Both the position numbers and the translations under genes were made by a program. From Candidatus Bathyarchaeota archaeon (lineage in GTDB: Archaea; Thermoproteota; Bathyarchaeia; Bathyarchaeales; Bathycorpusculaceae): 64,000 nt of DNA. The notes beneath the pieces are model-generated. The model made no database searches. It was not told where the DNA came from and saw nothing but the letters and a program-made list of their open reading frames with translations. The DNA is taken from assembly GCA_018396875.1 (NCBI GenBank), contig JAGTQG010000002.1, forward strand, positions 3,638 to 67,637, given 5' to 3'. Positions 2,025 to 63,901 of this stretch are shown here, piece after piece; position 1 is the first letter of the stretch; the number at the start of each line of letters is the position of its first letter.

Positions 2025-2507
2025 GTACACGCTTTCAGCCCAACTTTTTAGCAGTCTTTCACACTCTTCTTTAATCTCACGCTTTCTACTCTTAGCCTTT
2101 AACACTTCAAGGAACTCTATGCGTTTTTGAACGGATCGTCTTTCAGCTTCACCTCCAAAATACATTTTACCTTCAAGGTATTCCTTCATATGATTCGCCT
2201 TTTGAACGAATAGACTAGCAGCGTCCACGGGATTGGCAACGGCATATTTATTCGCCCAAATAATGGCTTCAGCCTCACGGAGCTGTGTGAAGCCATCAAT
2301 TTCGGATATTTCCCGAATATAAGTTCGAAGAAAATCGTAATAGCCCGCCGTTTTAATGAGCTTAAGGGCTTCCCTCACTTTTTGCTTAAACTCAGAGCTT
2401 CCTTTAACTCTTAAACGGCGCTTACAACCCTTTCCAGTGAACTTTTTCCTTTTGACATCCTCTTCTGTTTGAGTCCCTTCAGAAGGGGGCAACAAAATTC
2501 TCCTCAA
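2019..2507 (-). CDS. hypothetical protein with basic N-terminus
   Basis: 162-aa ORF lying 18 nt downstream of eS25 on the same strand. TTG is the only start candidate near the 5' end. The N-terminus is KRKKFTGKGCKRRLRVKG, followed by a helical body. No family recognised. Confidence 0.45.
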   Translation of the reverse strand: MRRILLPPSEGTQTEEDVKRKKFTGKGCKRRLRVKGSSEFKQKVREALKLIKTAGYYDFLRTYIREISEIDGFTQLREAEAIIWANKYAVANPVDAASLFVQKANHMKEYLEGKMYFGGEAERRSVQKRIEFLEVLKAKSRKREIKEECERLLKSWAESVYL

Positions 2508-14142: not shown

Positions 14143-15009
14143 ATGTTCCTTCCTAAAAAAGTTCTCGAAAAGAAGCTCCTGCAAATGCTTGCGGAAGACC
14201 TTGGGCAAGGCGACATAACAACATCTCTGCTGGCTCCAGATGGTTGCACAGTAGAGGCGGATATAATAGCCAAAGAAGCAGGAGTAATCGCTGGAATAGA
14301 GGAGGCAACTGTGCTTCTTGAAAGTTTAGGCTTAAGATTTGAAGCTTACGTCAAAGACGGGGACGAAATAAAGCCTAAACAAGTTTTGATAAGAGTTTGT
14401 GGAGACGCGCGAACCATACTTTCGGCTGAGCGCACGATTCTTAACATAATGTCGCGGATGAGCGGCATAGCCACAGCCACACGAAAACTTGTCGAAAAAA
14501 TTCAAAAGGCAGGGTATAAAACGAAGGTTGCTTGCACAAGGAAAACAGCGCCAGGACTGCTCTACTTTGATAAGAAGGCTGTCGCCATTGGTGGCGGCGA
14601 TACACATAGATTCCACTTGGATGACATGATCCTAATTAAGGATAATCATATTGCAATAGCGGGCAGTGTGGAGAAAGCTGTTAGAACAGCTCGAGAAAAA
14701 GCCTCCTTCAGCAAGAAAATCGAGGTTGAAGCGGCTAAAGTTGAAGATGTTCTAAGGGCAGCTGAAGTTGGAGTGGACATGGTGATGTTGGACAACTTCT
14801 CGCCCAAACAAGTGGAAGAGGCTGTTAAGCTCTTGAAAAAAGCCGGATATTATGGAAAAGTGATGTTGGAAGCCAGTGGTGGAATAACAGCCGAAAACAT
14901 CCTTGAGTATGCCTCCAAAGGAGTGGACATAATAAGTTTGGGCGAAATAACTCACAGCGTAAAAGCCTTGGATATAAGCCTAGAAATCACAAAGGTTAAG
15001 ATTGAGTGA
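14143..15009 (+). CDS. nadC: nicotinate-nucleotide pyrophosphorylase (quinolinate phosphoribosyltransferase)
   Basis: ERTILNIMSRMSGIAT, ACTRKTAPGL, IKDNHI, MLDNFSP, ASGGIT. Confidence 0.9.
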   Translation: MFLPKKVLEKKLLQMLAEDLGQGDITTSLLAPDGCTVEADIIAKEAGVIAGIEEATVLLESLGLRFEAYVKDGDEIKPKQVLIRVCGDARTILSAERTILNIMSRMSGIATATRKLVEKIQKAGYKTKVACTRKTAPGLLYFDKKAVAIGGGDTHRFHLDDMILIKDNHIAIAGSVEKAVRTAREKASFSKKIEVEAAKVEDVLRAAEVGVDMVMLDNFSPKQVEEAVKLLKKAGYYGKVMLEASGGITAENILEYASKGVDIISLGEITHSVKALDISLEITKVKIE

Positions 15010-15562
15010 ACGTTTTTATTAGAGCCATTTCAATGAAAGCGGCCAACAATAGAGTCACGGCACATATAGAGATCATAACACACATGTTTATGATTTCCCG
15101 TCTCCAGCCACCCTTCATAATACGCCAGACCAGCCAAGCACTTTCGGCGAAGGCCGCAGAGTACGCCAAAAATTCAAGCCAAGCGAATGGAAAAATGAAA
15201 AGCGACAGAAACGCAAGGTGTGGGTTTACGCCATTACAAATGCTTTGAGCCGCAATCACGATGCCCGTGCTATAAAGTACATAAAATCCGAAAAGAGGCC
15301 CTATGAAGGGGATAAAAAAGGACAGACATAAGACAAAATTGTTGCCGAAGATTAAGGTTGTTCCACGAAACATATCAACTTTTGAAATGTAATCCTGCGT
15401 TTCGCCAATCTCCTTGTTTATCTCAGATGCTTCCTCGCTAGTAAGCGGGGTTGAGACGCCAGCTATTGTTACTGCGATTGAGAAGAGAAAGAACATTAGG
15501 ATTGTGAGGATACGCTTTATTCTTGTTGGAAATTGTTTCCACAAACTCGAAACCATAGCCAT
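14996..15562 (-). CDS. integral membrane protein, SpoIIM/DUF95-like
   Basis: 188 aa with several hydrophobic helices. The layout resembles archaeal stage II sporulation protein M-like proteins; the assignment is weak. Confidence 0.4.
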   Translation of the reverse strand: MAMVSSLWKQFPTRIKRILTILMFFLFSIAVTIAGVSTPLTSEEASEINKEIGETQDYISKVDMFRGTTLIFGNNFVLCLSFFIPFIGPLFGFYVLYSTGIVIAAQSICNGVNPHLAFLSLFIFPFAWLEFLAYSAAFAESAWLVWRIMKGGWRREIINMCVMISICAVTLLLAAFIEMALIKTFTQS

Positions 15563-23783: not shown

Positions 23784-24404
23784 GTGTCTGCCAAAAAAGT
23801 TCGGGATAAGTGGCGCAGCAAAGCATGGTACACCGTGCTGGCTCCACCATACTTTGGAAACGTGGAGCTTGGCTCAATTCCAGCAGATGAACCGGCAAAA
23901 CTGCTCGGAAGGGTTATCGAGGCAACCCTTTACGACATCACGGGAGACTTTGCCCACCAATACATGAAAATCTACTTCCAAATAGTGAACATTGAAGGAA
24001 AAACAGCCCATACAGTGTTCAAGGGACACGAATATTCAAGGGATTATCTGCGAAGCCTTATACGCAGGAGAACAACAAAAGTTGACGGCATATTCAACGT
24101 AACAACAAAAGACGGATATAGGCTCAGAGTCGCCGTGTGCGCCTTCACCCTCTCAAGAATTAAAACTTCGCAGGAAACAGCCATCCGTAAAATCATGGCA
24201 AAAATCGTTGAAGAAAAAAGTAAAGCCCTAACACTGGACCAGTTCGCCCAAGAAATGGTTCTCGGAAAAATCGCCTCAGACGTTTACAACGAAGCCAAAA
24301 AAATTGTTCCACTAAGACACGTTGGTGTTAGAAAATCAAAGCTTCTGACGCCGGTGGTTCAACTGCAAACGCAAACGCCACTGCCAGAGGCTGAACAAAG
24401 TTAG
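23784..24404 (+). CDS. rps3ae: 30S ribosomal protein eS1 (S3Ae)
   Basis: KWRSKAWYTVLAPPYFG ... RVIEATLYDITGDF. GTG start. Confidence 0.9.
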   Translation: MSAKKVRDKWRSKAWYTVLAPPYFGNVELGSIPADEPAKLLGRVIEATLYDITGDFAHQYMKIYFQIVNIEGKTAHTVFKGHEYSRDYLRSLIRRRTTKVDGIFNVTTKDGYRLRVAVCAFTLSRIKTSQETAIRKIMAKIVEEKSKALTLDQFAQEMVLGKIASDVYNEAKKIVPLRHVGVRKSKLLTPVVQLQTQTPLPEAEQS

Positions 24405-24946
24405 CCTTCAACAAGCTTCCTGCCATATTCATAGCCAATTTCAAAAGCTTTTAGGTTTAACTCCTCAGTGCCCTTCGGAACATTCGCTTTAATCGATTCT
24501 TTTAAGGCTTCCTTATCCACAATCCCAGTTATTGCAGCAAAAGCTCCAAGCATGACCACGTTTGCGACAATTCTTCTTCCAAGCTCCTCAGCCATCCTTG
24601 TAGCTGGAACCCTGAAAATCCTCACGCCTTCAATTTCCCTTTCGTTAGGAATCATGTCTGGATCTAGGATTATCATTCCGCCCTTTTTGACGGTTTCCGC
24701 GTACTCGTTGTAAGCGTGCTGTGACATTAAAACCAGAATGTCAGGCTCCGTAACCTTCGGAAAATCTATTTCCACTTCTGAAATTATAACTTCTGACCTA
24801 CAAGCGCCTCCTCTAGACTCCGGTCCATAAGACTGAGTTTGCACGGCGTGCTTTCCGCCGTAGATGCACGCCGCCATGGCTGTTATGATCCCAGACTTTA
24901 TTATTCCCTGCCCGCCGAAACCAGCAAAGCGTATCTCTATCCGCAT
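24401..24946 (-). CDS. 2-oxoacid:ferredoxin oxidoreductase, gamma subunit
   Basis: IRFAGFGGQGIIKSG N-terminus; 181 aa; last gene of the operon. Confidence 0.85.
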   Translation of the reverse strand: MRIEIRFAGFGGQGIIKSGIITAMAACIYGGKHAVQTQSYGPESRGGACRSEVIISEVEIDFPKVTEPDILVLMSQHAYNEYAETVKKGGMIILDPDMIPNEREIEGVRIFRVPATRMAEELGRRIVANVVMLGAFAAITGIVDKEALKESIKANVPKGTEELNLKAFEIGYEYGRKLVEG

Positions 24947-24956
24947 GTTCCCACCT

Positions 24957-25793
24957 TCACTCTGATTCTTCCTTCATTAATTTAGCCATCTTTTCATAGA
25001 GCAGCTGTTCGTAGGTTGGCTTTTCAATGTCTACAAATTCTCCAACAACTATTTTCTCCGGTGTTATTTCCGCCTTTGCAGGGTCTGAGAAGTTCGCTAT
25101 CACTGAGGCTTCTCTAAACCATTCCATCATTTCAAGTCCTGTCCGCATTTTATTGTGGCGTCCGTAGATTTCTGGGCATGGTGATACAACTTCTATGAAG
25201 GAGAAACCCTTCCTTTGAAGCAACTTCTTTATGGATGCTGTTAACATGCGCACGTGAAGTGTTGTCCACCTAGCCACGTATGTCGCTCCAGAAGCCGCTG
25301 CCAAATGAACTAGGTTGAAGGGATGCTCTATATTGCCATAAGGAGTTGTGGTTGTCAAAGCTTCCAGCGGAGTTGTTGGACCGACTTGTCCACCAGTCAT
25401 CCCATAGTTGAAGTTGTTGGCGCAAATCACTTTTATGCCAATGTTTCTTCTAGCCGCATGAATAAAGTGGTTTCCGCCTATGGCGAATAAGTCGCCGTCG
25501 CCGCTTATAACAACCACTTCCAGTTCTGGTTTTGCAAGCTTAACTCCTGTGGCAAAGGCTATTGGACGCCCATGGGTTGTGTGGAACGAATCCGCGTTTA
25601 TGTACCCGGCTGCTCGTCCAATGCAACCTATCCCGGAAACAACCACAAGTTTGTTCAAGTCTATTTGTAGCTCATCCAAGGCGTGTACAAAAGCGTTTAA
25701 GATTATGCCGTTTCCACAACCAGAGCACCAAATGTGAGGTATCATGGCAGCTCTTAAATACTTTAAAAGCGGATGCTCAACAGCCTCCATCAT
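24957..25793 (-). CDS. 2-oxoacid:ferredoxin oxidoreductase, beta (TPP-binding) subunit
   Basis: WCSGCGNG and VISGDGDLFAIGGNHF (GDGD TPP/Mg motif). The 278-aa length is closer to KorB-type than PorB/VorB-type, but specificity is undetermined. Confidence 0.9.
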   Translation of the reverse strand: MMEAVEHPLLKYLRAAMIPHIWCSGCGNGIILNAFVHALDELQIDLNKLVVVSGIGCIGRAAGYINADSFHTTHGRPIAFATGVKLAKPELEVVVISGDGDLFAIGGNHFIHAARRNIGIKVICANNFNYGMTGGQVGPTTPLEALTTTTPYGNIEHPFNLVHLAAASGATYVARWTTLHVRMLTASIKKLLQRKGFSFIEVVSPCPEIYGRHNKMRTGLEMMEWFREASVIANFSDPAKAEITPEKIVVGEFVDIEKPTYEQLLYEKMAKLMKEESE

Positions 25794-26944
25794 TAACTAT
25801 GCCTCCTTATAGCTTCAAGAATTTCCAATGGTGTGTGAGGTTCCTCTCCAAGCTTCGGAAGATGATAGGCAGGTGTCGTTTTCGCGGCCCTTTCAACTTC
25901 TCGCACCATCTGGCCGCAGTTCATTTCCGGCACGATTATGGCTTTTGTTTTTTCAGCAGCCCTAGCCACGTGTTTCTCTGGAAAAGGCCAAAGGGTAATC
26001 AAGCGGACAAGTCCTGCTTTTATGCCTTGTTCTCTGGCTTTTTTCACAGCACTCAGCGCCGCCCTTGCCACGATTCCGTATGCCACAACAACAACTTCTG
26101 CATCGTCTATCATCACTTCCTCAACACGGACTATCTTGTCAGCGTTCTTTCTTATTTTGTCACAAAGCCTTTTAACGAGCCTCATTTGCACGTCTGAATC
26201 CTGCGTTCTCGGATAGCCGTGTTCATCGTGAGTTAAGCCAGTGGCATGAAAACGGTAACCCTCGCCGAAACACGCCATAGGCGGAACCAAGTCGTCGTCG
26301 GGCATGAAAGGCGCATAATTACCCGGTGGAGCGTTAGGCTTCTTGCGATTAACAATTTTAATTTCCTCAGCGGGAGGTATTACCACCTTCTCCCACATGT
26401 GAGCTACAACCTCATCAGCCATCAACAACGTTGGAACACGATACATTTCGGCCAAGTTAAAGGCTTCAACGGTTAAATCAAACATCTCCTGAACGGAGGA
26501 GGGCGACAAAGCTATGATTTCGTAATCTCCATGAGAGCCCCACTTGGCCTGCATGACGTCTTGTTGCCCGGGAAGGGTTGGTTGTCCAGTGCTGGGTCCC
26601 CCACGCATAACATCTACAATCACGCATGGAGCCTCTGTCATAACCGCCAAACCGATGTTTTCCTGCATTAGGCTGAAGCCCGGCCCAGAGGTTGCAGTCA
26701 TAGCTTTTAAACCGGCGTAAGAAGCCCCTATAACCGCCGCTATGGAGGCGATTTCATCCTCCATTTGAATGTATATTCCGCCAACCTTCGGCATTCTAGC
26801 GGCTATGTGCTCAGCTATTTCGGTTGCCGGCGTTATTGGATACCCGGCAAAGAACCTGCATCCAGCAGCTATGGCGCCCTCGGCGCATGCGATGTCGCCG
26901 CTCATGAAGTGCACGCCTGTTAAGACAGCCTTTTTCTCCGCCAT
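25793..26944 (-). CDS. 2-oxoacid:ferredoxin oxidoreductase, alpha subunit
   Basis: GDIACAEGAIAAGCRFFAGYPITPATEI and TATSGPGFSLM; 383 aa. Confidence 0.9.
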   Translation of the reverse strand: MAEKKAVLTGVHFMSGDIACAEGAIAAGCRFFAGYPITPATEIAEHIAARMPKVGGIYIQMEDEIASIAAVIGASYAGLKAMTATSGPGFSLMQENIGLAVMTEAPCVIVDVMRGGPSTGQPTLPGQQDVMQAKWGSHGDYEIIALSPSSVQEMFDLTVEAFNLAEMYRVPTLLMADEVVAHMWEKVVIPPAEEIKIVNRKKPNAPPGNYAPFMPDDDLVPPMACFGEGYRFHATGLTHDEHGYPRTQDSDVQMRLVKRLCDKIRKNADKIVRVEEVMIDDAEVVVVAYGIVARAALSAVKKAREQGIKAGLVRLITLWPFPEKHVARAAEKTKAIIVPEMNCGQMVREVERAAKTTPAYHLPKLGEEPHTPLEILEAIRRHS

Positions 26945-27223
26945 TTAACATCCATCCTTACACTGTTTCTCCTTAACGAATATTGCAAAGTCTGGACAAA
27001 CGGCTGTACAAAAGCTACATAACACACAGTTCTTTTCATCAACAACTCTTGGAGGGTGAACTCCTCTGGCGTTAATTTCATCGGATTCCTCTAAAACTTT
27101 TTTGGGACAGTAATGAATGCAGAAACCGCAACCCTTACATTGGTCCTTTAATATGTAAATTTCAGCCTTCGGTCTTGATATTTTTTCAACGTCCAATGGG
27201 GTTCTCCAAAGCCTCTCAGGCAT
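26945..27223 (-). CDS. 2-oxoacid:ferredoxin oxidoreductase, delta subunit (2x[4Fe-4S] ferredoxin)
   Basis: CKGCGFCIHYCP and CVLCSFCTAVCP. ATG 27223 is preceded by GGAGGTG and lies 1 nt after the hdrA stop; it is preferred over 27262. Confidence 0.8.
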   Translation of the reverse strand: MPERLWRTPLDVEKISRPKAEIYILKDQCKGCGFCIHYCPKKVLEESDEINARGVHPPRVVDEKNCVLCSFCTAVCPDFAIFVKEKQCKDGC

Positions 27224-27224
27224 T

Positions 27225-29630
27225 TCAAGCACCTCCAGCTTTTGAAAAAACTTTTTTAGCACGCTCGATCTCCTCGGGAGTTATGCTTTCCACAATCTTT
27301 TGCATCTCGTAAATTTTTGAGGCAAATCTTTCCCCTTCAGCGGCTGAAGCCCATAAGAGCTGAAGCCTCTCTTTGTTCAACCCGTTTTGTTCCATTTTCT
27401 TCCATAAGCGTTCCACCCGCCTTTGAGTGTGATAGTTGGCGTTGATGTAGTGGCAGTCTCCAGGGTGACAGCCAGCCACGAGAACTGCGGCGGCTCCTCT
27501 TGCAAAGGCTCTCTCGACAAATTTGGGGGCTACCCTTCCAGAACACATAGTCCTTATTATCCGGACGCTTGGTGGATACTGCATTCTGCTGACCCCAGCG
27601 AAATCTGCGCCCGCATATGCACACCAGTTGCAACAAAAAGCGACAATTTTTTTGTCGGCGTCGTATTCTGTAACGGCGTCTATTTGGGCTATTATCTGTT
27701 CATCGGTGAAGTGGTTCTGGGTTAACGCGTCGGATGGACATTCTGCAGCGCATGTTCCGCAGCCTCCACATGCAGCTTCGACAATTTCAACGCGTTTAAG
27801 CTCCTTGTTAAGGGTTATAGCGTTGTATGGGCAAACTTTCGCGCAAAGCCCGCAAGCCTTACACTTTTCCACATCTAAAATTGGGGTAATAGCCTCAACC
27901 GTAACCTTGCCCTTAGCCATCAATATGCCAGCTCTGGCAGCAGCCGCACTGGCTTGTGTCACGCTGTCCTTTATGTCTTTGGGAGATTCGGCGCATCCGG
28001 CGAAAAATATGCCTCCCGTGGCAGCGTCCACTGGCCGAAGTTTCGGGTGAGCTTCCATGAAAAATCCATCCTGTGTTCTTGAAAGCGTTAGCAGCCTTTG
28101 TATTATTTCACTGTCTTTTCGCGGTTCAAGTCCAACGGATAAGATGACCATGTCAAATTCCATTTTGTAAGGCTCTTTTAGAAGCGTGTTTTCGCCTATA
28201 AGCCAAAGATTGCGAGTTTTCTTGTCCTCAATGATTTCTGCTGGGAGACCCCGAATGAATATCACACCTTCCTTCTTAGCCCTCTTATATAAGTCTTCGA
28301 AGCCTTTCCCATATGCGCGAATATCCACGTAAAAAACGTAGATTTCTGTTTCAGGCCAATGTTCTTTGATTAAAAGACTATCCTTTATTGTGTTCATACA
28401 GCAAACATTGCTACAGTAGGTTCGCCCAGTTTTATTGGAGCGGGAGCCGACGCATTGTATGAAAGCCACACGCCTTGGAACTTTCATGTCGCTGGGTCTA
28501 ATCAGTCGCCCTCCAGAAGGCCCACCAGCATTAATCAGTCTTTCAAATTCAAGAGATGTAATGACGTTTGGGTATTTGCCATAACCATACTGGGGTAATG
28601 TTGAAGGATCGAAAACGTCTGCACCAGTGGCAACGATGATTGTACCTACCTCTAACTCTACAGCTTCGGGTTTCATTGTGAAATCTATGGCTTGCCTTTC
28701 ACATGCTTTAATGCATCTGTCGCACACTATTACGCCATCCTTGTTGAGGCATAGGTTCATGTCAACTATGTAGGTGGATGGAACTGCTTGAGCGAAAGGC
28801 GTGTAAATGGCGTGTCGCAGGGCTAATCCGGCGTCAAACTCGTTGGGCGCTGTCATGGGACAGACTTTTGAGCATTCGCCGCATGCTGAACAATCCTTCT
28901 TTACATAACGTGGTTTCTTTAACACTTTTACTCGAAAGTTGCCAATGTACCCCTTTACGTCGATAACTTCGCTGTTGGTTAATAGTTCGATATTTGGGTG
29001 ACGCCCAACATCAGACATCTTCGGGGCAAGAATGCATATGGAGCAGTCCATTGTTGGGAAAGTTTTGTCCAGCCTTGCCATCATTCCGCCGATGCTAGGC
29101 TCCCTCTCCACCAAATAAACCTTATAGCCTGTGTCAGCAAGATCCAATGCCGCTTGAATCCCAGCAACACCACCGCCGATAACCAGCGCCTTTCGTATAA
29201 CTGGCACTTCAATATCGCTAGCTGGTTTCAGCAACGCAGCCTTTGCCACAGCCATTTTCACAAGGTCTTTCGCCTTTTCGGTTGCAGCCCTCCTATCGTG
29301 AAGGTGAACCCAACTACACTGCTCCCGTATATTAGCCATCTCAAAAAGGTACTTGTTTAACCCAGCTTCTTCACAAGCCTTTCTAAACGTAGGCTCGTGG
29401 AGACGGGGAGAACATGAAGCAACAACCACACGATTAAGCCTATATTCTCTGATATCGTTCTTGATGAGTTCTTGCCCTTGATCTGAACATGTGTAACGGT
29501 AATCCCTCGCCAAAACAACATGAGGAAGCGTGGAAGCAAACTCAGCAACTTCTTCACAATCAACGGAGCCAGCAATATTCAAACCACAATGGCAAACATA
29601 AACCCCTATGCGTATTTCCTCTCTAGACAT
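27225..29630 (-). CDS. hdrA: heterodisulfide reductase subunit A-like flavoprotein fused to an MvhD-like C-terminal domain
   Basis: HdrA N-domain (IGVYVCHCGLNIAG), FAD site (ALVIGGGVAGIQAALDLA, TMDCSICILAPKM), and ferredoxin inserts (CSACGECSKVCP, CKACGLCAKVCP, CGGCGTCAAECP). The C-terminus is MvhD-like: VAFCCNWCAYAGAD ... RTMCSGRV ... VAGCHPGDCHY. Confidence 0.85.
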   Translation of the reverse strand: MSREEIRIGVYVCHCGLNIAGSVDCEEVAEFASTLPHVVLARDYRYTCSDQGQELIKNDIREYRLNRVVVASCSPRLHEPTFRKACEEAGLNKYLFEMANIREQCSWVHLHDRRAATEKAKDLVKMAVAKAALLKPASDIEVPVIRKALVIGGGVAGIQAALDLADTGYKVYLVEREPSIGGMMARLDKTFPTMDCSICILAPKMSDVGRHPNIELLTNSEVIDVKGYIGNFRVKVLKKPRYVKKDCSACGECSKVCPMTAPNEFDAGLALRHAIYTPFAQAVPSTYIVDMNLCLNKDGVIVCDRCIKACERQAIDFTMKPEAVELEVGTIIVATGADVFDPSTLPQYGYGKYPNVITSLEFERLINAGGPSGGRLIRPSDMKVPRRVAFIQCVGSRSNKTGRTYCSNVCCMNTIKDSLLIKEHWPETEIYVFYVDIRAYGKGFEDLYKRAKKEGVIFIRGLPAEIIEDKKTRNLWLIGENTLLKEPYKMEFDMVILSVGLEPRKDSEIIQRLLTLSRTQDGFFMEAHPKLRPVDAATGGIFFAGCAESPKDIKDSVTQASAAAARAGILMAKGKVTVEAITPILDVEKCKACGLCAKVCPYNAITLNKELKRVEIVEAACGGCGTCAAECPSDALTQNHFTDEQIIAQIDAVTEYDADKKIVAFCCNWCAYAGADFAGVSRMQYPPSVRIIRTMCSGRVAPKFVERAFARGAAAVLVAGCHPGDCHYINANYHTQRRVERLWKKMEQNGLNKERLQLLWASAAEGERFASKIYEMQKIVESITPEEIERAKKVFSKAGGA

Positions 29631-29637
29631 TCGCCAT

Positions 29638-31071
29638 TCACCTCAAGGACCTTAAATAACAATCAATGGAGGAGGCAGCCATCCTTCCGGCATAAATAGC
29701 CTCAACTATTGAGGCTGGACCTGTTACGGCGTCTCCTCCGGCGAAAACACCTTTAAGGGTTGTCTCCATAGTTAGTGGGTTAACCCATATTGTTCCATCC
29801 TCATTTAGTTCAATCTCCTTCGGTATAAAGGAAAGGTCTGGAGCCTCGCCTATTGCCAAAATCACCATGTCAGCGTCTTTAACAAATTCGGAACCTTCTA
29901 TTGGAACCGGTTTTCTTCTTCCGGTTTCATCTAACTCGCCAAGCTTCATTCGAACAAATTCTACAGCGGAAACGTTTTCGCCGCTGCCTAAAATTCTCTT
30001 GGGAGAAATCAAAAATTCGATTTTTACACCTTCATCTTCTGCCTCTTTGACTTCCCATGGGTTTGCAGGCATCTCCTCCCTAGACCTTCGATAGAATATT
30101 GTTACTTCTTTAGCTCCACATTTAAGGGCGGTTTTTGCGGAGTCAACAGCAACATTTCCACCACCAATAACAGCGACACGTTTGTCCTCAACATTTAGCG
30201 CCTTTTCAGAATTAAACATACAAAGAAAATCCAGAGCATGCACAACGCCCTTCAAGCCGGCGCCCTCGATTCTTAATTCTTGCCCCTTATGAGCACCTAC
30301 ACCGATAAATACGGCATCGTAGCGACTTCGCAAACTGCTAAAATCAACATCTTTACCAACCACGACGCTTGTCTCTATTTCTACACCAAGATCTTTCAAC
30401 GCTTGTATGTCCATGTCTAAAAGTTCTCTTGGAAGACGATAGGCTGGTAAACACTTTCTCAACATTCCACCGGGCTCTTTCATAGCCTCAAAAACCGTAG
30501 CCTCATAGCCCTTTAGAATTAAATCATGCGCAACAGTTAGCCCAGCTGGTCCAGAGCCTATGACCGCAACTTTTCCCTTTATCGACTCCGCCTTAATCGC
30601 CCTCTTTTCCTCATCCAACAATTCCTTCCTTATTTTTTCAGCTTCCTTTACGATTCTGTCTAAGCCTAAACCTGCACGCTCAGGATGGAAACATGCAAGG
30701 ATTGTTACCAAGGGGAGGGGGGATGCCCTAACAATTTTTTGGATGATATTTTCAAACGCTTGTTTACGCTCAGTCTCAACTGCAAACTTTTTGGCATGGA
30801 AGAATATTTCTGGCGGTTTTAATGCTTGGGGGCAACGTTTGTAACAACGGTAGCACCAAGCACAGAGCCAAATCTCATCTGAAACCAATACGTCTTCAAC
30901 ATTTAAGAAAATTTTTTCGAGAACATTCCTTGGATTATATTCTCCTTTTAGAAGACCTGCCATGGGACAGCTTGCCGTGCATATGCCACATTCAAAGCAG
31001 AACTTAATTTTCTCAGCGTCAGGGTATTCAGCGAGAACTTCTCTGTAGGTTATAGGTTTCCCGGCACTCAA
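29638..31071 (-). CDS. GltD/NfnB(SudA)-like NAD(P)H-dependent FAD oxidoreductase with N-terminal HdrC-like 2x[4Fe-4S] domain
   Basis: N-terminal CFECGICTASCP and CAWCYRCYKRCP. These are followed by VAVIGSGPAGLTVAHDL, EAMKEPGGMLRKCLPAYRLP, VAVIGGGNVAVDSA and FAGGDAVTGP. Confidence 0.8.
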   Translation of the reverse strand: MSAGKPITYREVLAEYPDAEKIKFCFECGICTASCPMAGLLKGEYNPRNVLEKIFLNVEDVLVSDEIWLCAWCYRCYKRCPQALKPPEIFFHAKKFAVETERKQAFENIIQKIVRASPLPLVTILACFHPERAGLGLDRIVKEAEKIRKELLDEEKRAIKAESIKGKVAVIGSGPAGLTVAHDLILKGYEATVFEAMKEPGGMLRKCLPAYRLPRELLDMDIQALKDLGVEIETSVVVGKDVDFSSLRSRYDAVFIGVGAHKGQELRIEGAGLKGVVHALDFLCMFNSEKALNVEDKRVAVIGGGNVAVDSAKTALKCGAKEVTIFYRRSREEMPANPWEVKEAEDEGVKIEFLISPKRILGSGENVSAVEFVRMKLGELDETGRRKPVPIEGSEFVKDADMVILAIGEAPDLSFIPKEIELNEDGTIWVNPLTMETTLKGVFAGGDAVTGPASIVEAIYAGRMAASSIDCYLRSLR

Positions 31072-31109
31072 TTCAGCCGCCCTCCTATTATTGGAAAGCT
31101 CATAGATAT

Positions 31110-31131
31110 AAACTTTACAAATGTAAAGTTT
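31110..31131. promoter_or_regulatory. perfect 10+10 bp palindrome AAACTTTACA-AA-TGTAAAGTTT in divergent promoter region (candidate operator)
   Basis: Read directly from the sequence. It lies 39-60 nt upstream of the gltD-like start (31071, minus) and 63-84 nt upstream of the 31194 plus-strand gene, flanked by TATA-like ATAGATATA and TTATAGATA. Confidence 0.4.
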
Positions 31132-31193: not shown

Positions 31194-32222
31194 ATGGAAG
31201 AGGTTAAGGTTGTCTCGTATGGAGTTGGAGCCGTTGGAAGTTTAATCGCGAAAACTCTTCTTGAAAAAAGTGGCGTGAAAGTGGTTGGCGCAATTGACGT
31301 GGCAAAGGATAAAGTGGGCAGGGACTTGGGCGAATTTTTAGGCTTAAAAAAGCTGGGTATAACCATTTCAAACGACACGGACACCGTGCTTTCAAAAACG
31401 AAACCAGACATAGTCGTCCACGCAACTTCATCCTATCTTAAGGACACTTATTCCCAGATAGCTTCTATTGTCAAACATGGCGTAGACGTGATATCCACAT
31501 GTGAGGAACTTTCATATCCCTACCATTCAGAGCCGAAACTTGCAAAGGAGCTGGATGAACTGGCTAAAAAACACGGCGCAACGGTTGTTGGCACTGGAAT
31601 AAATCCGGGCTTTCTGATGGATACGCTTGTGATAACGCTGACGGCGGTCTGCCAAAAAATAGAGAAGATTGAGGCTGTTAGGGTTATGAACGCTGCGACA
31701 AGACGGTTGCCGTTCCAGAGAAAGATTGGCGCAGGCTTAACGGTGGAGGAATTTCGACAGAAAATTGAAGGGGGAGAAATAACCGGGCACGTGGGTCTTG
31801 AACAGTCTATCGCGATGATTGCAGACGCCCTAGCGTGGAAGCTTGACGGGATAAGGGCTGAGCCGGTTGAACCGGTTATAGCCAAACAACCTGTGAAAAG
31901 CGACTTCATAACTGTGGAAACTGGCAAGGTTGCAGGTTTGAGGCAAAGGGCGAAAGGCATGGTGAAAGGCAGGGAGGTCATAGTCTTGGACTTTCAAGCG
32001 TATATCGGGGCGGAGGAGGAGTATGACGCCATAACAATAACCGGTGTGCCAACCGTTAGACAAAAAATACAGCCGTGCATTCACGGAGACACAGGCACAG
32101 TTGCCATGGTTATTAATGCTATTCCAAAGGTGCTTAACGCTCCTGCAGGCTTGCTTACAATGAAGGATTTGCCGGTTCCCTCCGCTGCACTTGAGGATAT
32201 GCGGAAATACTTGAAGGCTTAG
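31194..32222 (+). CDS. NAD(P)H-dependent amine dehydrogenase family protein (2,4-diaminopentanoate dehydrogenase / DapB-like)
   Basis: N-terminal Rossmann segment VVSYGVGAVGSLIAKTLL, CEELSYPY and GTGINPGF resemble the Ord/native amine dehydrogenase family. Confidence 0.55.
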   Translation: MEEVKVVSYGVGAVGSLIAKTLLEKSGVKVVGAIDVAKDKVGRDLGEFLGLKKLGITISNDTDTVLSKTKPDIVVHATSSYLKDTYSQIASIVKHGVDVISTCEELSYPYHSEPKLAKELDELAKKHGATVVGTGINPGFLMDTLVITLTAVCQKIEKIEAVRVMNAATRRLPFQRKIGAGLTVEEFRQKIEGGEITGHVGLEQSIAMIADALAWKLDGIRAEPVEPVIAKQPVKSDFITVETGKVAGLRQRAKGMVKGREVIVLDFQAYIGAEEEYDAITITGVPTVRQKIQPCIHGDTGTVAMVINAIPKVLNAPAGLLTMKDLPVPSAALEDMRKYLKA

Positions 32223-32239
32223 CATGTTTGGTGTGTGCC

Positions 32240-33013
32240 TTGAAGTTTTGGGTTGACATAAACTGCGATTTAGGTGAAAGTTACGGCAACTTCAAAGTTG
32301 GAAGCGACGCCGAAATAATGCCATACATAACTTCCGCGAATGTTGCATGCGGCTTTCACGGCGGGGATCCTGTGACGATTGCGCAGACAATAGCCCTTGC
32401 GAAAAAGCACGGGGTAGCTGTCGGCGCTCACCCCGGATACCCTGACCTCATGGGATTTGGGAGAAGAGAAATGCAACTTACATATAATGAAGCGAAAACC
32501 TACGTAATCTATCAGGTTGGTGCCCTCCAAGGCTTCGCAAAAGTTTTCGGTGCACCCCTTCAGCATGTGAAGCCTCACGGCGCCATGTACAACATGGCTT
32601 TAAAGGATGAGGCGCTTGCCAGAGCCATAACCGAAGCCGTACTGGAGCTGGACCATAACCTAATAGTTTTTGCACCGCCAAAATCAGTGCTAGCGAAAAA
32701 AGCCGCAGATGCTGGGCTCCGCGTCGCCCACGAGTTTTTCGCTGATAGAGCATATAACCCGGATGGAAGTCTAGTCTCCCGGAGATTAGCCGGCGCCGTA
32801 ATTGAGGAGCCAGATAAAGTTGTTGGGAGAGCTGTTAAAGCCGTGAAGGAGGGTGTGGTGGAAGCTGTCAACGGGGAACTTGTGGAGCTTGGCACAGTGC
32901 ACACTATTTGTGTTCATGGCGACACTCCGACAGCCCTAAAACTCGCTAGGGCTTTGAGAAGCGGGCTTGTCAAGGCGGGCATAGAGGTTGAAGCCGTAAG
33001 TCGGTTCATTTGA
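32240..33013 (+). CDS. pxpA: 5-oxoprolinase subunit A (LamB/YcsF family)
   Basis: DINCDLGESYG, ACGFHGGDP, KPHGAMYN, VHGDTP. The start is uncertain (TTG 32228, GTG 32231 or TTG 32240). Confidence 0.85.
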   Translation: MKFWVDINCDLGESYGNFKVGSDAEIMPYITSANVACGFHGGDPVTIAQTIALAKKHGVAVGAHPGYPDLMGFGRREMQLTYNEAKTYVIYQVGALQGFAKVFGAPLQHVKPHGAMYNMALKDEALARAITEAVLELDHNLIVFAPPKSVLAKKAADAGLRVAHEFFADRAYNPDGSLVSRRLAGAVIEEPDKVVGRAVKAVKEGVVEAVNGELVELGTVHTICVHGDTPTALKLARALRSGLVKAGIEVEAVSRFI

Positions 33014-33029
33014 TCAAAGGGAGTTAGAC

Positions 33030-33767
33030 TTGGAGCATATTTATCCATCTGCCCGCTACCTGCCCTTCGGCGACACCGCCCTAGTGGTTGAGTTCGGCAA
33101 CATAATAGACTTGACTGTAAACCGCAAGGTCATAGCTCTAAACGAGGCGATTCTGGAGGCAAACATCATTGGAGTTGAAGAAACCGTTCCCACCTATAGG
33201 TCGCTGCTCATCCGCTACAACCCTGAGAAAATAGCCTACGAACATTTGGTTGAACAAATTAAGGAAATCGAGAAAAGGTTGAGGGACACACCGCCTCCAA
33301 AAAAGACGAGAAAATTCACCATTCCAGTTGTTTATGGAAGCATTTACGGACCTGATTTAAAGGATGTAGCCGAATACCACGGCTTGACAGAAAACCAAGT
33401 GGTTGAAATTCACTCTAGAAAAGAGTATAGAGTCTACATGATCGGCTTTGTTGCCGGTTTCCCGTATCTAGGGGAAGTGCCTGAAGAAATCGCAACTCCA
33501 CGCCTTCCAACTCCACGCTTAAAGGTTCCGGCGGGCTCCGTTGGCATTGCGGAAAGGCAGACGGGCATATATCCATGCGAGGCGCCTGGTGGATGGCGCA
33601 TTATAGGTAGAACACCCATTAAGCTTTTCGATGCCGACTGGAGGCCGCCAGCCCTCCTCAAACCCGGAGACATTGTAAGGTTTATGCCAATTTCAGAAGA
33701 AGAATTCAAAAGAATTGAGGAGCTTGTTAAGTCTGGAGCCTATAAACTGGAGTTTAGAGAAGAATGA
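33030..33767 (+). CDS. pxpB: 5-oxoprolinase subunit B (KipI / allophanate hydrolase subunit 1 family)
   Basis: YLPFGDTALVVEFG, VPTYRSLLIRYNP, GFVAGFPYLG, GGWRIIGRTP. TTG start. Confidence 0.85.
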   Translation: MEHIYPSARYLPFGDTALVVEFGNIIDLTVNRKVIALNEAILEANIIGVEETVPTYRSLLIRYNPEKIAYEHLVEQIKEIEKRLRDTPPPKKTRKFTIPVVYGSIYGPDLKDVAEYHGLTENQVVEIHSRKEYRVYMIGFVAGFPYLGEVPEEIATPRLPTPRLKVPAGSVGIAERQTGIYPCEAPGGWRIIGRTPIKLFDADWRPPALLKPGDIVRFMPISEEEFKRIEELVKSGAYKLEFREE

Positions 33768-34714
33768 ACCTTTTCCACGTGTTGAGGGCTGGATTCTTCA
33801 CAACAGTGCAGGATTTGGGTAGATGCGGCTACCTCAAATATGGAGTCCCAATTTCAGGCGCCATGGACACTTTTTCCATGGTTGCAGCAAACTTGCTGGT
33901 GGCAAACAACCCCAACGACGCATGCCTGGAAATAACCCTGATCGGACCGGAATTGCAGGCACTGAGAGACACACAAATCGCTGTGACCGGCGGAAAGCTT
34001 TCCATAAAAATTGATGGAAAAGAGGCGCCCATGTGGCAGACGCTAACCATACACGAGGGCGAAACAATTACGCTTGGAAAAGTTGAAAGAGGTTGTAGAA
34101 GCTACCTTGCCGTTAGAGGAGGCATAAATACACCATTGATTCTCGGAAGCAGATCCACATACACACGGGGCAAGCTCGGCGGGATTGAGGGTAGACAATT
34201 AAAGCCTGGAGACATCATATGCGGGTTTAATGTCCCTTTTTTGGAAGCTTGTTTTAAATTGCCGGAAAACATGGTGCCCCAATTTTCCAACGACTTCACA
34301 GTCCATGTTGTTTTGGGACCACAATCAGACATGTTCACAGACAAAGGCATTGAAACCTTTCTTTCAAGCCAATACAAGGTTACGATTGAATCAGACCGCA
34401 TGGGTTACCGCCTTGACGGACCATCAATAGAGCATAAAGACAAAGCGGAAATTGTTTCAGACGCGCTTCTCCCCGGAGCGGTTCAAGTGCCAAGGGATGG
34501 AAAGCCGATCGTAATCATGAAGGACGCCCAGACAACGGGAGGCTACCCAAAAATAGCTGCAGTGATAACTCCAGACCTAGACATGCTTGGACAGGCAAAG
34601 CCAAACGACACGGTTAGGTTTTTTGAAATAACACTTGAAGAAGCCCATGAAAGACTTTTGGAATACCGTAGAAAGCTTTCAAGCCTAACTCAAAAACTGG
34701 TTAGAATAAGTTGA
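33764..34714 (+). CDS. pxpC: 5-oxoprolinase subunit C (KipA / allophanate hydrolase subunit 2 family)
   Basis: TVQDLGRCGYLKYGVPISGAMD, SDRMGYRLDG, DAQTTGGYPKIA. ATGA overlap with pxpB. Confidence 0.85.
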   Translation: MNLFHVLRAGFFTTVQDLGRCGYLKYGVPISGAMDTFSMVAANLLVANNPNDACLEITLIGPELQALRDTQIAVTGGKLSIKIDGKEAPMWQTLTIHEGETITLGKVERGCRSYLAVRGGINTPLILGSRSTYTRGKLGGIEGRQLKPGDIICGFNVPFLEACFKLPENMVPQFSNDFTVHVVLGPQSDMFTDKGIETFLSSQYKVTIESDRMGYRLDGPSIEHKDKAEIVSDALLPGAVQVPRDGKPIVIMKDAQTTGGYPKIAAVITPDLDMLGQAKPNDTVRFFEITLEEAHERLLEYRRKLSSLTQKLVRIS

Positions 34715-38419: not shown

Positions 38420-39693
38420 AGGCTGTAGTTTTAGCTGCCGGTGAAGGAGTCAGGCTTCAACCGTTAACCTTCACTCGTCCAAAACACATGATCAGCATTG
38501 GTGGAAAACCAGTTCTTGAACATTGCTTAAACGCCATTAAGGCTTGCGGGATAAACCACGTGGCAATTGTTGTCCATTATATGGCTGAGGTCATCCGCCG
38601 CCATTTTGGTTCAGGCGAAAAATTTGGACTTAAAATAGAATATGTGGAGCAGCCCAGTGTTCTCGGAACAGGAAACGCTGCGGGCACCGTCGAACCATTC
38701 GTAGAAGACGATTTTGTGCTCGTTTACGGTGACCTACTTTTCACACCGGAAGCCTTAAAGAGGGTTCTCGATTTACATGGCACGAAAAGACCGGCTGCAA
38801 CTTTGGCTGTTGTTCCCGTGGATAAGCCGGAAGACTACGGTGTTGTGGAGCTTGGAGAGGACGGTTCTGTAAAGCGCATCGTTGAGAAGCCAGCCCACGG
38901 AGAAGCGCCTTCAAACATGGCTAACGCCGGATTATACGTTTTTTCCACGGAAATTTTCGAGAAAATAAGGAAGATCAAAGCATCTTCAAGGGGAGAATGG
39001 GAAGTCACGGACGCCATCGAACTATTGATCGAAGAGGGCAAGCCTGTTTTTGCAGTTAACATCGCCCGCACCGACTGGCTTGACATTGGCAGACCATGGG
39101 ATCTTCTGGAGGCTAACAGTTGGATTCTAAACCGAATGGAACACAAAATATTGGGGCACGTGGAGGTGGGTGCCCACATAACCGGCCCAGTCACGGTGGC
39201 GGAGACAGCCCGCATTCGCTCTGGAGCCTACGTTGAAGGGCCAGCATACATAGGCGAGCACAGCGACATTGGACCTAACTGTTACATAAGGCCTTGCACG
39301 AGCATAGGGCGGAAGGTGCGCATTGGAAACGCATGCGAAATAAAAAACAGCATAATAATGGATGGCGTGCACATTGGCCACTTGTCCTACGTGGGCGACA
39401 GTGTCATAGGCGAAAACTGCAACTTGGGCGCTGGAACCATAACCGCCAATTACCGCTTTGACGCTGGAACCGTCAAAATGATGGTTAGGGACAAGCTTGT
39501 GGACAGCGGCAGAACAAAGCTTGGCGCAATTTTAGGTGACAACGTGAAAACGGGGATAAACGCGCTCTTAATGCCCGGCGTAAAAGTTGGAAACAACTGT
39601 TGGATAGGCCCAAACGTTGTGGTTTATCGGGATGTGCCGCCGAACACGGCTGTTTTTCTGAAACAGGAACAGGAAGAGAAAAGGCTAGGCTAG
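38416..39693 (+). CDS. glmU: bifunctional sugar-1-phosphate nucleotidylyltransferase/acetyltransferase (archaeal GlmU-like)
   Basis: LAAGEGVRLQPLT nucleotidyltransferase motif plus C-terminal hexapeptide-repeat left-handed beta-helix. GTGA overlap with glmM. Confidence 0.85.
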   Translation: MKAVVLAAGEGVRLQPLTFTRPKHMISIGGKPVLEHCLNAIKACGINHVAIVVHYMAEVIRRHFGSGEKFGLKIEYVEQPSVLGTGNAAGTVEPFVEDDFVLVYGDLLFTPEALKRVLDLHGTKRPAATLAVVPVDKPEDYGVVELGEDGSVKRIVEKPAHGEAPSNMANAGLYVFSTEIFEKIRKIKASSRGEWEVTDAIELLIEEGKPVFAVNIARTDWLDIGRPWDLLEANSWILNRMEHKILGHVEVGAHITGPVTVAETARIRSGAYVEGPAYIGEHSDIGPNCYIRPCTSIGRKVRIGNACEIKNSIIMDGVHIGHLSYVGDSVIGENCNLGAGTITANYRFDAGTVKMMVRDKLVDSGRTKLGAILGDNVKTGINALLMPGVKVGNNCWIGPNVVVYRDVPPNTAVFLKQEQEEKRLG

Positions 39694-40745
39694 CCGATCA
39701 TTATCGATGTCCCGCAATATTCGCATTGCACAGACGTTTGTCCTTTGTAGATTTCTTTTGTGTACGGGGCGCCACAGTGGGGACAGCGGATAACCCGTAT
39801 TGTTGGCGCCTCTTTAGGTGTTATGCCTCTTATTGTGGCTATGTCTCTGTCCGCCTCCCCGCCGATGATGTATTGGAAGAATCTGGTTATAACGTCGGCT
39901 TCCCAGTCTTTAACGTCGAAGGGTGTTTCCTCCATTTGGACGCTTGGTTTAAAGCGTATGTAGACGCCTGTCCAAGCGATTAACCCAACCCTTCCCTTGG
40001 AGATTTCTTGTAGGGCGCCTATGGGCTGTTCGATTAGGACTGTGCGTTCCGTTTTCTTTTTGGTGGCTATGAAAAGCTTCTTTTCAAGAACCACTTCCCG
40101 TTTTCCTTCAAAAACAAACCTTTGATTCGTGAAGTACAAGGTGCCTTCACACTTGTCTTTCGTCATGATTTTTCCTTCGATAGCTAGGACCGGGCTTTCC
40201 TCAGGTTTTAGCGGAAACGAAGCGAAGGAGAAAAGCTCCATGGTTTTCTCTGCAATTTTTAGGTCTCTGTCTATGGCGTTTATGCTTCCGAGAAACTCGC
40301 CGAGGGAAGTGCTTACTCTCGCGGTTTCGGCGGCAACCCGCGCCCTTAAAGTTGAGGCTTCCACTGAAAGGCGGCTTGCCAAACCCCAACAGAAAGCCGT
40401 GTTTCCACGGTTTATCTCCGCCCTTAACCTGTTTGCATCCGCTTGGAGTATGCGAATTTGGGCTGTTAGGGGTTGAACATTGTTATAGAACGCTTGTTTA
40501 ATGGTTGGGGAAGCTTCCATCCACTTCTTAGTCAAAATGTCTATGCTCTTTTCAAGATGCCCCATGGCGGCATAACCACGTCCTCGAACCGTTGCAAGTC
40601 TACTTGGCAGAGAAGCCATAGCACTGTCAATGTAGGCTAATTTGCCCTCCACGTCGCTTATGGATGCAGAAGCCCCAGACAAGTCAGATTCAATTGACCG
40701 CAGCCTAGCATAAAGGGCTTCCCGTTCTCTATCAGCATGCGCCAT
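39690..40745 (-). CDS. hypothetical protein: helical N-terminal half, PH/GRAM-like middle domain, C-terminal zinc ribbon
   Basis: 351 aa. The N-terminal ~170 aa are Ala/Ser/Arg-rich helices. The middle has EGTLYFTNQRFVFEGK (GRAM/bacterial-PH-like signature). The C-terminus is CPHCGAP...CEYCGT. Confidence 0.55.
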   Translation of the reverse strand: MAHADREREALYARLRSIESDLSGASASISDVEGKLAYIDSAMASLPSRLATVRGRGYAAMGHLEKSIDILTKKWMEASPTIKQAFYNNVQPLTAQIRILQADANRLRAEINRGNTAFCWGLASRLSVEASTLRARVAAETARVSTSLGEFLGSINAIDRDLKIAEKTMELFSFASFPLKPEESPVLAIEGKIMTKDKCEGTLYFTNQRFVFEGKREVVLEKKLFIATKKKTERTVLIEQPIGALQEISKGRVGLIAWTGVYIRFKPSVQMEETPFDVKDWEADVITRFFQYIIGGEADRDIATIRGITPKEAPTIRVIRCPHCGAPYTKEIYKGQTSVQCEYCGTSIMIG

Positions 40746-62484: not shown

Positions 62485-62512
62485 AATCTTGATAGGGAAT
62501 GAGGGAGGAAAC

Positions 62513-62935: not shown

Positions 62936-62948
62936 AAGAGTAAATGCC

Positions 62949-63896: not shown

Positions 63897-63901
63897 AGCG
63901 T

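Follow-up and report, generated by a model that had tools for sequence, protein, structure and literature searches.

Described HdrA systems and the bathyarchaeial locus

In the methanogen complexes MvhAGD-HdrABC and Fdh/Mvh-Hdr-Fmd(Fwd) (5ODC, 7BKB, 8RVU, 9SW6), a full-length HdrA is combined with MvhD and an HdrC-type dicluster protein, and ferredoxin-like modules (FmdF, FwdF and MvhB chains) connect the low-potential arm straight to an enzyme that fixes CO2. A six-gene operon at 24401-31071 on the minus strand of the DNA analysed here, a 64,000-nucleotide (nt) stretch (the window) of contig JAGTQG010000002.1 from a Candidatus Bathyarchaeota archaeon (assembly GCA_018396875.1), shares the full-length HdrA, the MvhD and the HdrC-type dicluster. 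Unlike the methanogen supercomplexes, it encodes no HdrB with its CCG site, carrying instead an NfnB-like NADP(H) domain on the HdrC-like domain; it also lacks a hydrogenase or formate dehydrogenase (Fdh), its MvhD is fused to HdrA, and a thiamine diphosphate (TPP)-dependent 2-oxoacid:ferredoxin oxidoreductase (OFOR) of the Kor type replaces the formylmethanofuran dehydrogenase (Fmd/Fwd). From the gene content, domain homology and comparative linkage observed here, we infer a physical association, an assignment of redox arms, a substrate and a direction: tentatively, and with somewhat less than even confidence, the six genes would encode one soluble HdrA-centred bifurcating or confurcating complex, with Kor on the low-potential arm and NADP(H) in the arm that HdrBC occupies elsewhere.

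Several other systems resemble parts of this operon. The Methanosarcina acetivorans HdrA2B2C2 system likewise contains an HdrA-MvhD fusion, whose HdrA2 family model the operon protein passes, and its hdrA2 lies apart from hdrB2C2 next to an Fe-S protein gene (PMC5296606); it uses F420H2, ferredoxin and CoM-S-S-CoB via HdrB2C2, whereas the operon encodes an NADP(H) module and an OFOR (PMC5296606). The flavin adenine dinucleotide (FAD)/NADPH domain of gene 1 is alike to that of NfnB, NfnI-L and Stn-type proteins, differing in that an HdrC-like domain replaces Fer4_20 and that no NfnA partner is present. Type III HdrA proteins of ANME-1 (HdrA9-11) and Bathyarchaeota also bring a GltD/NfnB module together with HdrA in archaea, with GltD placed inside the HdrA ferredoxin domain and the genes clustered with mvhADG or several hdrA (PMC12054007, PMC9012536); in the operon, by comparison, the GltD-like part belongs to a separate protein, in which it is fused to an HdrC-like domain, with Kor as the partner. 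In the class II benzoyl-CoA reductase complex BamB-I, the low-potential arm of HdrA is hard-wired (BamBC), entry occurs through the MvhD-type BamF, and the other arm is of HdrC/D type (10.64898/2026.04.10.717634). Unlike the operon, BamB-I is bacterial, its low-potential module is a tungsten enzyme of the AOR type, NADH and ferredoxin enter via a HydBC-like module, and KGOR acts only as an external ferredoxin-reducing helper (10.64898/2026.04.10.717634). The NADH-dependent phenylglyoxylate dehydrogenase PadEFGHI combines an OFOR core with a pyridine-nucleotide flavoprotein, as the operon does, but has neither HdrA nor MvhD. Similarly, the Azoarcus 2-oxoglutarate:NADP+ oxidoreductase is an NAD(P)-linked OFOR with a flavoprotein and no known HdrA or MvhD.

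Every component of the operon comes from a known family. In the full-text literature that could be searched, neither a gltD-like/hdrA-mvhD/korDABG operon nor a linkage of Kor with HdrA was found described, although an earlier mention may exist, and the Bathyarchaeia genomics papers searched name HdrA, MvhD/HdrA, Mvh and OFORs only separately. An OFOR as a module attached to HdrA, an HdrC-like/NfnB-like fusion as its companion and the class-wide occurrence of the operon in Bathyarchaeia appear to be undescribed.

Composition, conservation and variants of the operon

The ORF (open reading frame) listing and its translation give six consecutive genes encoding proteins of 477, 801, 92, 383, 278 and 181 amino acids (aa), separated, in gene order, by 7, 1, 0, -1 and 10 nt, with a GGAGG-like motif ahead of all six start codons. 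Gene 1 (29638-31071, TTG start) encodes an HdrC-like/NfnB-like fusion and gene 2 (27225-29630) an HdrA::MvhD fusion, followed by the OFOR subunits KorD (delta, 26945-27223), KorA (alpha, 25793-26944), KorB (beta, 24957-25793) and KorG (gamma, 24401-24946), all on the minus strand. The 92-aa KorD is counted from an ATG, as in public records, while the ORF listing runs longer, to a GTG at 27262. This layout reproduces exactly the order and spacing reported in a first-pass annotation made from the letters of the window, and its domain assignments for the six proteins hold in Pfam, NCBIfam and PDB searches.

Gene 1 joins two modules in one polypeptide. The N-terminal HdrC-like 2x[4Fe-4S] domain (aa ~19-163, nt 30583-31017, minus strand; Pfam Fer4_8/Fer4_17, TIGR03290) aligns through residues 22-163 with positions 1-139 of the 144 in the HdrC profile TIGR03290, and the HdrC chain 5ODC_C matches residues 20-99 in the PDB sequence search. 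Two CxxCxxCxxxC motifs, CFECGICTASC at residue 25 and CAWCYRCYKRC at residue 70, mark it as an HdrC domain; its 74 bits against the HdrC equivalog model remain under the cut-off of 160, and its fusion to a flavoprotein with no HdrB alongside distinguishes it from a stand-alone HdrC that pairs with HdrB. The C-terminal NfnB/GltD-type FAD and NADP(H) domain (aa ~166-475, nt 29647-30576, minus strand; Pyr_redox_2, 109 bits) contains the FAD/NAD(P)H Rossmann elements, with GSGPAG and with GGGNVA at residue 303 followed by YRR, and the NfnB-like part as a whole (residues ~146-475) scores 250-300 bits against 9BOV_A, 9N5U_A, 5JCA_L (278 bits) and 4YLF_B (264 bits), the PDB search placing these four chains on residues 159-475. 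NF009410 reaches 330 bits, every NCBIfam family score on gene 1 being under its cut-off. The Fer4_20 domain (PF14691) that is canonical in NfnB/GltD was not found in gene 1 by Pfam, and neither NfnA nor GltB is encoded in the window, so that the usual combination of Fer4_20 with an NfnA/GltB partner is missing here. The nearest homologues of gene 1 are all labelled Candidatus Bathyarchaeia or Bathycorpusculaceae.

Gene 2 carries the complete HdrA domain set, comprising the N-terminal domain, the TrxR-like FAD domain, the inserted ferredoxin domain and the C-terminal ferredoxin domain. Its HdrA part (aa 4-653, nt 27672-29621, minus strand) aligns with residues 2-649 of the M. thermolithotrophicus chain 5ODC_A at 878.7 bits, and the NCBIfam HdrA2 model reaches 1287 bits against a cut-off of 1100. 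In the 5ODC_A alignment, Lys and Glu are retained at the positions of K409 and E356, the FAD-stabilising residues of bifurcating HdrA (PMC12054007), and all four ferredoxin-type Cys motifs (at 247, 294, 590 and 621) are kept. The MvhD/FlpD part (aa 659-790, nt 27261-27656, minus strand) matches the solved MvhD chain 5ODC_D at 157 bits over residues 659-788 and FlpD (PF02662) at E = 1.5e-49 over residues 662-782. The HdrA protein is 76-96% identical across the class and occurs in identical form on contigs of several Tengchong hot-spring metagenome-assembled genomes (MAGs), the window itself stemming from a hot-spring bathyarchaeial MAG; for gene 1, identity drops as low as 53%. An expanded Cys loop, CLNKDGVIVC, is present in the inserted ferredoxin domain (aa 247-311, nt 28698-28892, minus strand), which in type I HdrA serves ferredoxin reduction (PMC12054007). 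Such a C-x7-8-C loop is present in all Kor-linked HdrAs, as against C-x2-C in the methanogen HdrA of the PDB and in the Fwd-linked HdrA of Hadarchaeota; as a sign of Kor coupling the difference is suggestive only, because polyferredoxin-linked HdrAs have the expanded loop too.

Pfam annotation of the window, in which four ORFs of at least 150 aa have no match, reveals no HdrB (CCG-domain), HdrC, MvhA/G or formate dehydrogenase gene. HdrA is thus not accompanied by a CCG-domain protein or a stand-alone HdrC within the 64 kb or in ~90 related loci. The first-pass claim that HdrBC, Mvh and Fdh are missing accordingly stands for the window, yet it has local validity only, since published Bathyarchaeia carry hdrBC elsewhere in the genome (PMC8407382, PMC11697101).

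The four remaining genes supply a complete four-subunit Kor/Oor-type OFOR: the alpha, beta, gamma and delta subunits are all encoded, and the TPP motif, the beta cysteines and the delta dicluster are in place. KorA (POR_N and PFOR_II) scores 595.9 bits against NF006412 (cut-off 411), 458 bits against P. furiosus 1YD7_A and 294 bits against 8YS5_A. KorB (TPP_enzyme_C), in which four cluster cysteines accompany the GDG...NN motif for TPP, has OGOR beta NF007207 as its best NCBIfam match (266.6 bits, under the cut-off of 364) and reaches 225 bits against 8YS5_C, 8YS5 being a 2-oxoglutarate enzyme. KorG (Pfam POR) exceeds the cut-off of NF006323 (246.5 bits against 235), and KorD (Pfam Fer4 families), with two CxxCxxCxxxC motifs for 2x[4Fe-4S], matches OGOR_delta best (66 bits, under the cut-off of 125). 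The entry 6N2N is a further PDB relative of the Kor subunits, and the POR, VOR and IOR models score far below the Kor/OGOR models. An affinity to Kor/2-oxoglutarate-type enzymes is therefore supported, and 2-oxoglutarate may be the substrate; the earlier hint at such an enzyme, drawn from the short beta subunit, is backed by the best matches of KorA (NF006412, 1YD7) and KorB (OGOR beta, 8YS5_C). Pad-type models score 66 bits on KorG (PadE, cut-off 300), 87 on KorA (PadG, cut-off 700) and 43 on KorB (PadI, cut-off 700), placing the enzyme outside the Pad-type NAD(P)-dependent OFORs. The top PDB matches of KorD are polyferredoxins of Hdr/Fwd complexes, and were discounted as summed repeat scores without specificity. 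At its C-terminus (26945-26959), past the eight cluster cysteines, KorD has an extra CxxxC pair (CKDGC), which is found in several relatives, including unlinked ones, and is absent from locus L039.

Conservation in relatives, which the first-pass annotation had set as a check, is borne out. A scan anchored on gene 1, taking one genome per species and covering 80 loci, recovers the complete six-gene chain in 34 of the 41 archaeal-type loci on a long enough contig; L061 is complete as well and was missed only through two overlapping alignments, while truncated contigs agree with the order up to their ends. The hdrA-korD junction has a median of 8 nt (range 3-14, n = 40), the gene 1-hdrA junction one of 42 nt, and those within kor 5, 2 and 13 nt; this retention of junction lengths over 35-46 loci upholds the proposal of a single tightly coupled unit. 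In a KorA-anchored scan of metagenome contigs, 52 of the 69 informative loci have hdrA immediately upstream. Recurring in dozens of species genomes, the arrangement goes far beyond what chance would produce, and the operon, judged by these comparisons, appears to be a class-wide signature of Bathyarchaeia with sister architectures. Two loci lie in bins with bacterial names: L044 ('Krumholzibacteriaceae bacterium') contains the whole bathyarchaeial six-gene cluster with an HdrA 82% identical, and L043 ('Anaerolineales bacterium') has the gltD-like gene only, on a contig that stops ~1.3 kb later. Both are probably mis-binned archaeal contigs.

Kor and HdrA also come together in other gene orders. 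Locus L168 (7187-15326, GCA_022865705.1) reads korD-korA-korB-korG-hdrA(653 aa)-mvhD-mvhG-mvhA-hycI, a type shared by L155 and L156 that joins Kor to HdrA and a group-3c-type [NiFe] hydrogenase without hdrBC or a gltD-like gene, and L154 and L161 read korDABG-hdrA. In L157 (2062-10517) and L163 (1798-9451), korDABG is followed by a 2Fe-2S/4Fe-4S (FrdB-like) protein, an FrdA/SdhA-like flavoprotein and hdrC-hdrB(CCG)-hdrA, a composition that suggests fumarate reduction coupled to 2-oxoglutarate synthesis. L157 thus has HdrCB and the Frd-like pair without MvhD, and L168 has MvhAG without an HdrC-type arm, so that each Kor-HdrA variant seems to display a different two of three arms, always with Kor.

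Conversely, the gene 1 and HdrA::MvhD pair occurs with other partners. In a Hadarchaeota MAG (L056, 4481-14474), it lies between mtd-ftr and fwdD/B-fwdA-fwdC, where it would attach an HdrA module with an NADP(H) link to formylmethanofuran dehydrogenase in place of Kor; in other Bathyarchaeia it stands beside an FwdF-like polyferredoxin, once next to AOR. What these archaeal partners share is a ferredoxin-dependent enzyme near -500 mV. Bacterial relatives of the module, without an OFOR, are present in L067 (2827-13191) and ~18 further Desulfobacterales loci (L066-L085), ordered as an OYE/enoate-reductase-like flavoprotein, an HdrA-like protein (450 aa), HdrA::MvhD (695 aa), an HdrC-like+Fer4_20+NfnB-like protein (585 aa) and an amidase.

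Analysis of KorD reveals that this subunit changes with the presence of HdrA. Linked KorDs have a common N-terminal arm, MPxR(L/I/T)(W/R/K)(R/H)xPLD, which reads MPERLWRTPLD in the operon (27191-27223, minus strand). With a broadened regular expression, a narrower first pattern having under-counted the linked loci, the arm is found in 78 of 96 HdrA-linked loci and in 3 of 15 unlinked ones (Fisher p = 6e-6), and inspection by eye of the remaining linked KorDs leaves only three in which the core motif is missing. In 11 loci Kor stands without gene 1 and HdrA; one of them is L088 (6509-10517), from a close relative, which has a KorA 93% identical and the same flanks (Ord-like, rpS3Ae, SerRS) while the gltD-like gene and hdrA are missing. 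The KorD of L088 is only 66% identical, and exactly the N-terminal MPxRLWRxPLD arm is replaced. In 13 of 14 unlinked loci KorD has diverged beyond the expectation based on KorA (negative identity residual), so that, as far as these alignments go, KorD tracks HdrA linkage. The other Kor-HdrA orders, the KorD motif and this deletion variant strengthen the earlier proposal of joint action by the OFOR, HdrA and an NAD(P)H site.

Proposed wiring and competing explanations

In described complexes, MvhD-type adaptors are the mid-potential entry, HdrC/HdrD-type proteins lead to the higher-potential site, and ferredoxin domains serve the low-potential arm (PMC5296606, 10.64898/2026.04.10.717634); specifically, HdrC relays electrons from HdrA2 to HdrB2 (PMC5296606). 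PDB entries 7BKB and 9SW6 contain HdrA, HdrC, MvhD and FmdF/MvhB chains together. The solved Hdr complexes (5ODC, 7BKB, 9SW6), M. acetivorans and the class II benzoyl-CoA reductase therefore provide the arm mapping, with KorD-Kor put in the place of FmdF-Fmd. In the proposed complex, HdrA would carry the branching FAD, and the HdrC-like domain of gene 1 would dock at the HdrC site and lead to the NfnB-like FAD, so that on the higher-potential arm NADP+/NADPH would stand in for the heterodisulfide and HdrB. The inserted ferredoxin domain of HdrA would exchange low-potential electrons with KorD in either direction, the Kor-type OFOR (acyl-CoA + CO2/2-oxoacid, ~-500 mV) being hard-wired in the manner of Fmd or BamBC, and the fused MvhD would serve as the port for a mid-potential partner outside the operon, for which ferredoxin or an unlinked hydrogenase are candidates.

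The net reaction would be X_red (~-410 mV) + NADP+ + succinyl-CoA + CO2 <-> NADPH + 2-oxoglutarate + CoA. The mean of -320 mV and ~-500 mV is ~-410 mV, in line with H2 or ferredoxin as the partner, and a reversible reaction close to equilibrium would follow. Run forwards, the complex would be a bifurcation-powered synthase of 2-oxoglutarate, or of another 2-oxoacid, that also yields NADPH, and the union of Kor, Frd-like proteins and HdrABC in L157 would fit such an anabolic reductive tricarboxylic acid (TCA) branch. Run backwards, it would oxidise a 2-oxoacid and NADPH together and pass all electrons to the ferredoxin/H2 pool, a direction that would suit amino-acid fermentation and with which the neighbouring 5-oxoprolinase and amine dehydrogenase genes would be consistent. 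That the forward direction prevails, making this the first bifurcation-powered 2-oxoacid synthase, in which a mid-potential donor is split to NADP+ and Kor throughout the Bathyarchaeia, seems doubtful at present; in the sister operon that donor would be H2, entering via Mvh, and the present operon would draw on ferredoxin or on an unlinked donor.

The first-pass annotation had regarded NAD(P)H as the donor and the high-potential partner as the one to be found. This part is revised, since the HdrC-like domain, by homology, would put the NADP(H) flavin on the high-potential arm. A mid-potential partner at MvhD is the more likely missing piece, because the HdrC-like domain would set NADP(H) on the HdrB side and because L168 has Mvh at the MvhD position. 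F420H2 as donor with NADP+ as high-potential acceptor was rejected on energetic grounds, its -340 to -380 mV being insufficient for a -320/-500 mV pair.

Several observations weigh against the proposed complex. The flanks of the operon are conserved as well (rpS3Ae and SerRS downstream, the Ord-like gene and pxpABC divergently upstream), and since they are broadly syntenic in Bathyarchaeia, conserved order alone is the weaker evidence and partly reflects general synteny; the six-gene block does persist beyond them. Three unlinked loci (L136, L148 and L150) retain the KorD motif, and the expanded HdrA loop, being shared with polyferredoxin-linked HdrAs, may be phylogenetic. In Nfn, moreover, the NfnB-like flavin itself bifurcates, and the arm assignment from HdrC homology could be wrong. 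Finally, the hdrBC genes that published Bathyarchaeia genomes carry elsewhere (PMC8407382, PMC11697101) could supply the true partner of this HdrA, in the way known from M. acetivorans HdrA2.

In an alternative that takes up the first-pass reading, NAD(P)H would be the two-electron donor, entering via gene 1 and bifurcated at HdrA; one electron would be driven uphill to Kor for reductive carboxylation, and the other would pass, via MvhD or elsewhere, to a high-potential acceptor (an unlinked HdrBC/HdrD or another disulfide reductase). Besides those unlinked hdrBC genes (PMC8407382, PMC11697101), the NADPH fingerprint of gene 1 (GGGNVA and YRR) speaks for it, the closest solved relatives being the NADPH-oxidising bifurcating NfnB, NfnI-L and Stn-type proteins. 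H2, F420H2 and NADPH have similar potentials, and NADPH would be a natural substitute, as Yan et al. propose for HdrA2 homologues (PMC5296606); the sister operons can likewise be read as a donor module (Mvh, L168) and an HdrBC acceptor (L157). Nevertheless, the NADPH module is carried on an HdrC-like domain rather than on an MvhD-like adaptor, whereas characterised Hdr donors enter by MvhD-type proteins and HdrC leads to the high-potential site. An HdrC-like domain in the HdrC site would also leave no room for a separate HdrBC, and the required acceptor is encoded in none of ~90 variant-A loci. NAD(P)H as donor is therefore an unlikely explanation.

A second alternative dispenses with a physical Kor-Hdr complex: gene 1 and HdrA::MvhD would form an independent Nfn-like NADPH:ferredoxin oxidoreductase, working with one further partner and merely co-transcribed with Kor. 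A shared ferredoxin pool would be enough for this, for example in amino-acid fermentation, and published bathyarchaeial OFORs are taken as free ferredoxin-reducing catabolic enzymes (PMC7886697, PMC9534799). Each part is able to stand alone, as Kor is missing beside the pair in the Fwd, polyferredoxin and Desulfobacterales loci, and the pair is missing beside Kor in the 11 loci that include L088. Simple co-transcription, however, is hard to reconcile with a KorD whose N-terminal motif and divergence follow the presence or absence of HdrA, with Kor-HdrA adjacency re-established in three or more distinct gene orders, or with an hdrA-korD junction held to 3-14 nt in 40 loci, and other HdrA systems wire the low-potential arm straight to the consuming enzyme. 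A merely shared transcript thus appears improbable.

Lastly, a linear 2-oxoacid:NADP+ oxidoreductase (Kor to KorD, HdrA clusters/FAD, HdrC-like domain, NfnB-like FAD and NADP+), in which HdrA would be a mere one-electron/two-electron converter and MvhD would be idle, is very unlikely: although the operon holds all needed parts without a third partner, and some OFORs linked to NAD(P) do have an additional flavoprotein subunit (PadE-I, whose models match KorA, KorB and KorG weakly), it would cost organisms that live close to the thermodynamic limit ~130-180 mV for each electron, an HdrA of 801 aa that keeps every bifurcation hallmark and is 76-96% identical across the class is excessive as a wire, the MvhD domain is kept everywhere, and the Mvh-hydrogenase sister operon shows a third redox partner in use.

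Genomic surroundings and implications for Bathyarchaeia

Upstream of gene 1, a TATA-box-like TTTATAT preceded by AAAG (31106-31112, minus strand) lies 35-41 nt from the TTG start within a 122-nt divergent intergenic region, forming a candidate archaeal promoter of the operon; at the other end, the final part of rpS3Ae, which runs towards the operon, overlaps with the korG stop. The divergent neighbour (31194-32222, plus strand; DapB_N/DAP_DH_C) encodes a 2,4-diaminopentanoate-dehydrogenase-like NAD(P) amine dehydrogenase (Ord-like), scoring 351.6 bits against NF040740, under the equivalog cut-off of 400. It is kept divergently upstream of the operon in 39 related loci, and the 5-oxoprolinase genes pxpABC that follow it (31194-34714 in all, plus strand) are kept in 21. 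The Ord-like gene is possibly co-regulated with the operon, its membership in the system being uncertain.

The methylmalonyl-CoA mutase cluster (60802-64000, plus strand), comprising the large subunit, the B12-binding subunit, MeaB and a cob(I)alamin adenosyltransferase, is indeed in the window, as the first-pass annotation had remarked; it lies 30 kb away, no evidence of a link with the operon was found, and a tie between the two was set aside. An anaerobic ribonucleotide reductase set (NrdD, radical-SAM activase and NrdR; 54676-57949, minus strand) likewise gives no sign of operon linkage. The four ORFs without a Pfam family at E <= 1e-5, of 162-456 aa, are located at 281-1651 (plus), 2019-2507 (minus), 14996-15562 (minus) and 39690-40745 (minus), and neither a tRNA nor an Rfam scan of the window gave a hit.

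In anoxic sediments, Bathyarchaeia rank with the most abundant archaea, and their redox balance is unresolved in published reconstructions. The role of bathyarchaeial Mvh-type hydrogenases has been called unclear (PMC9534799), and other Bathyarchaeia papers list orphan MvhD/HdrA. The proposed system is open to study, comprising six soluble proteins, the natural minus-variant L088 and sister operons with the predicted absent arms (Mvh; HdrBC with Frd-like proteins). If true, a coupling of HdrA to Kor would give the orphan HdrA and Mvh genes a function, and OFORs would join the few enzymes that are hard-wired to a bifurcating flavin, so far Fmd/Fwd and BamBC. It would show how the thermodynamically hardest carboxylation of the reductive TCA branch can be driven without a very reduced free ferredoxin pool, or else how the energy of 2-oxoacids is harvested in amino-acid fermentation. 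As a synthase, the complex would make 2-oxoglutarate and NADPH, both substrates of glutamate synthesis, without free low-potential ferredoxin, and would represent the TPP-enzyme counterpart of the CO2-fixing Hdr-Fmd supercomplex of methanogens.

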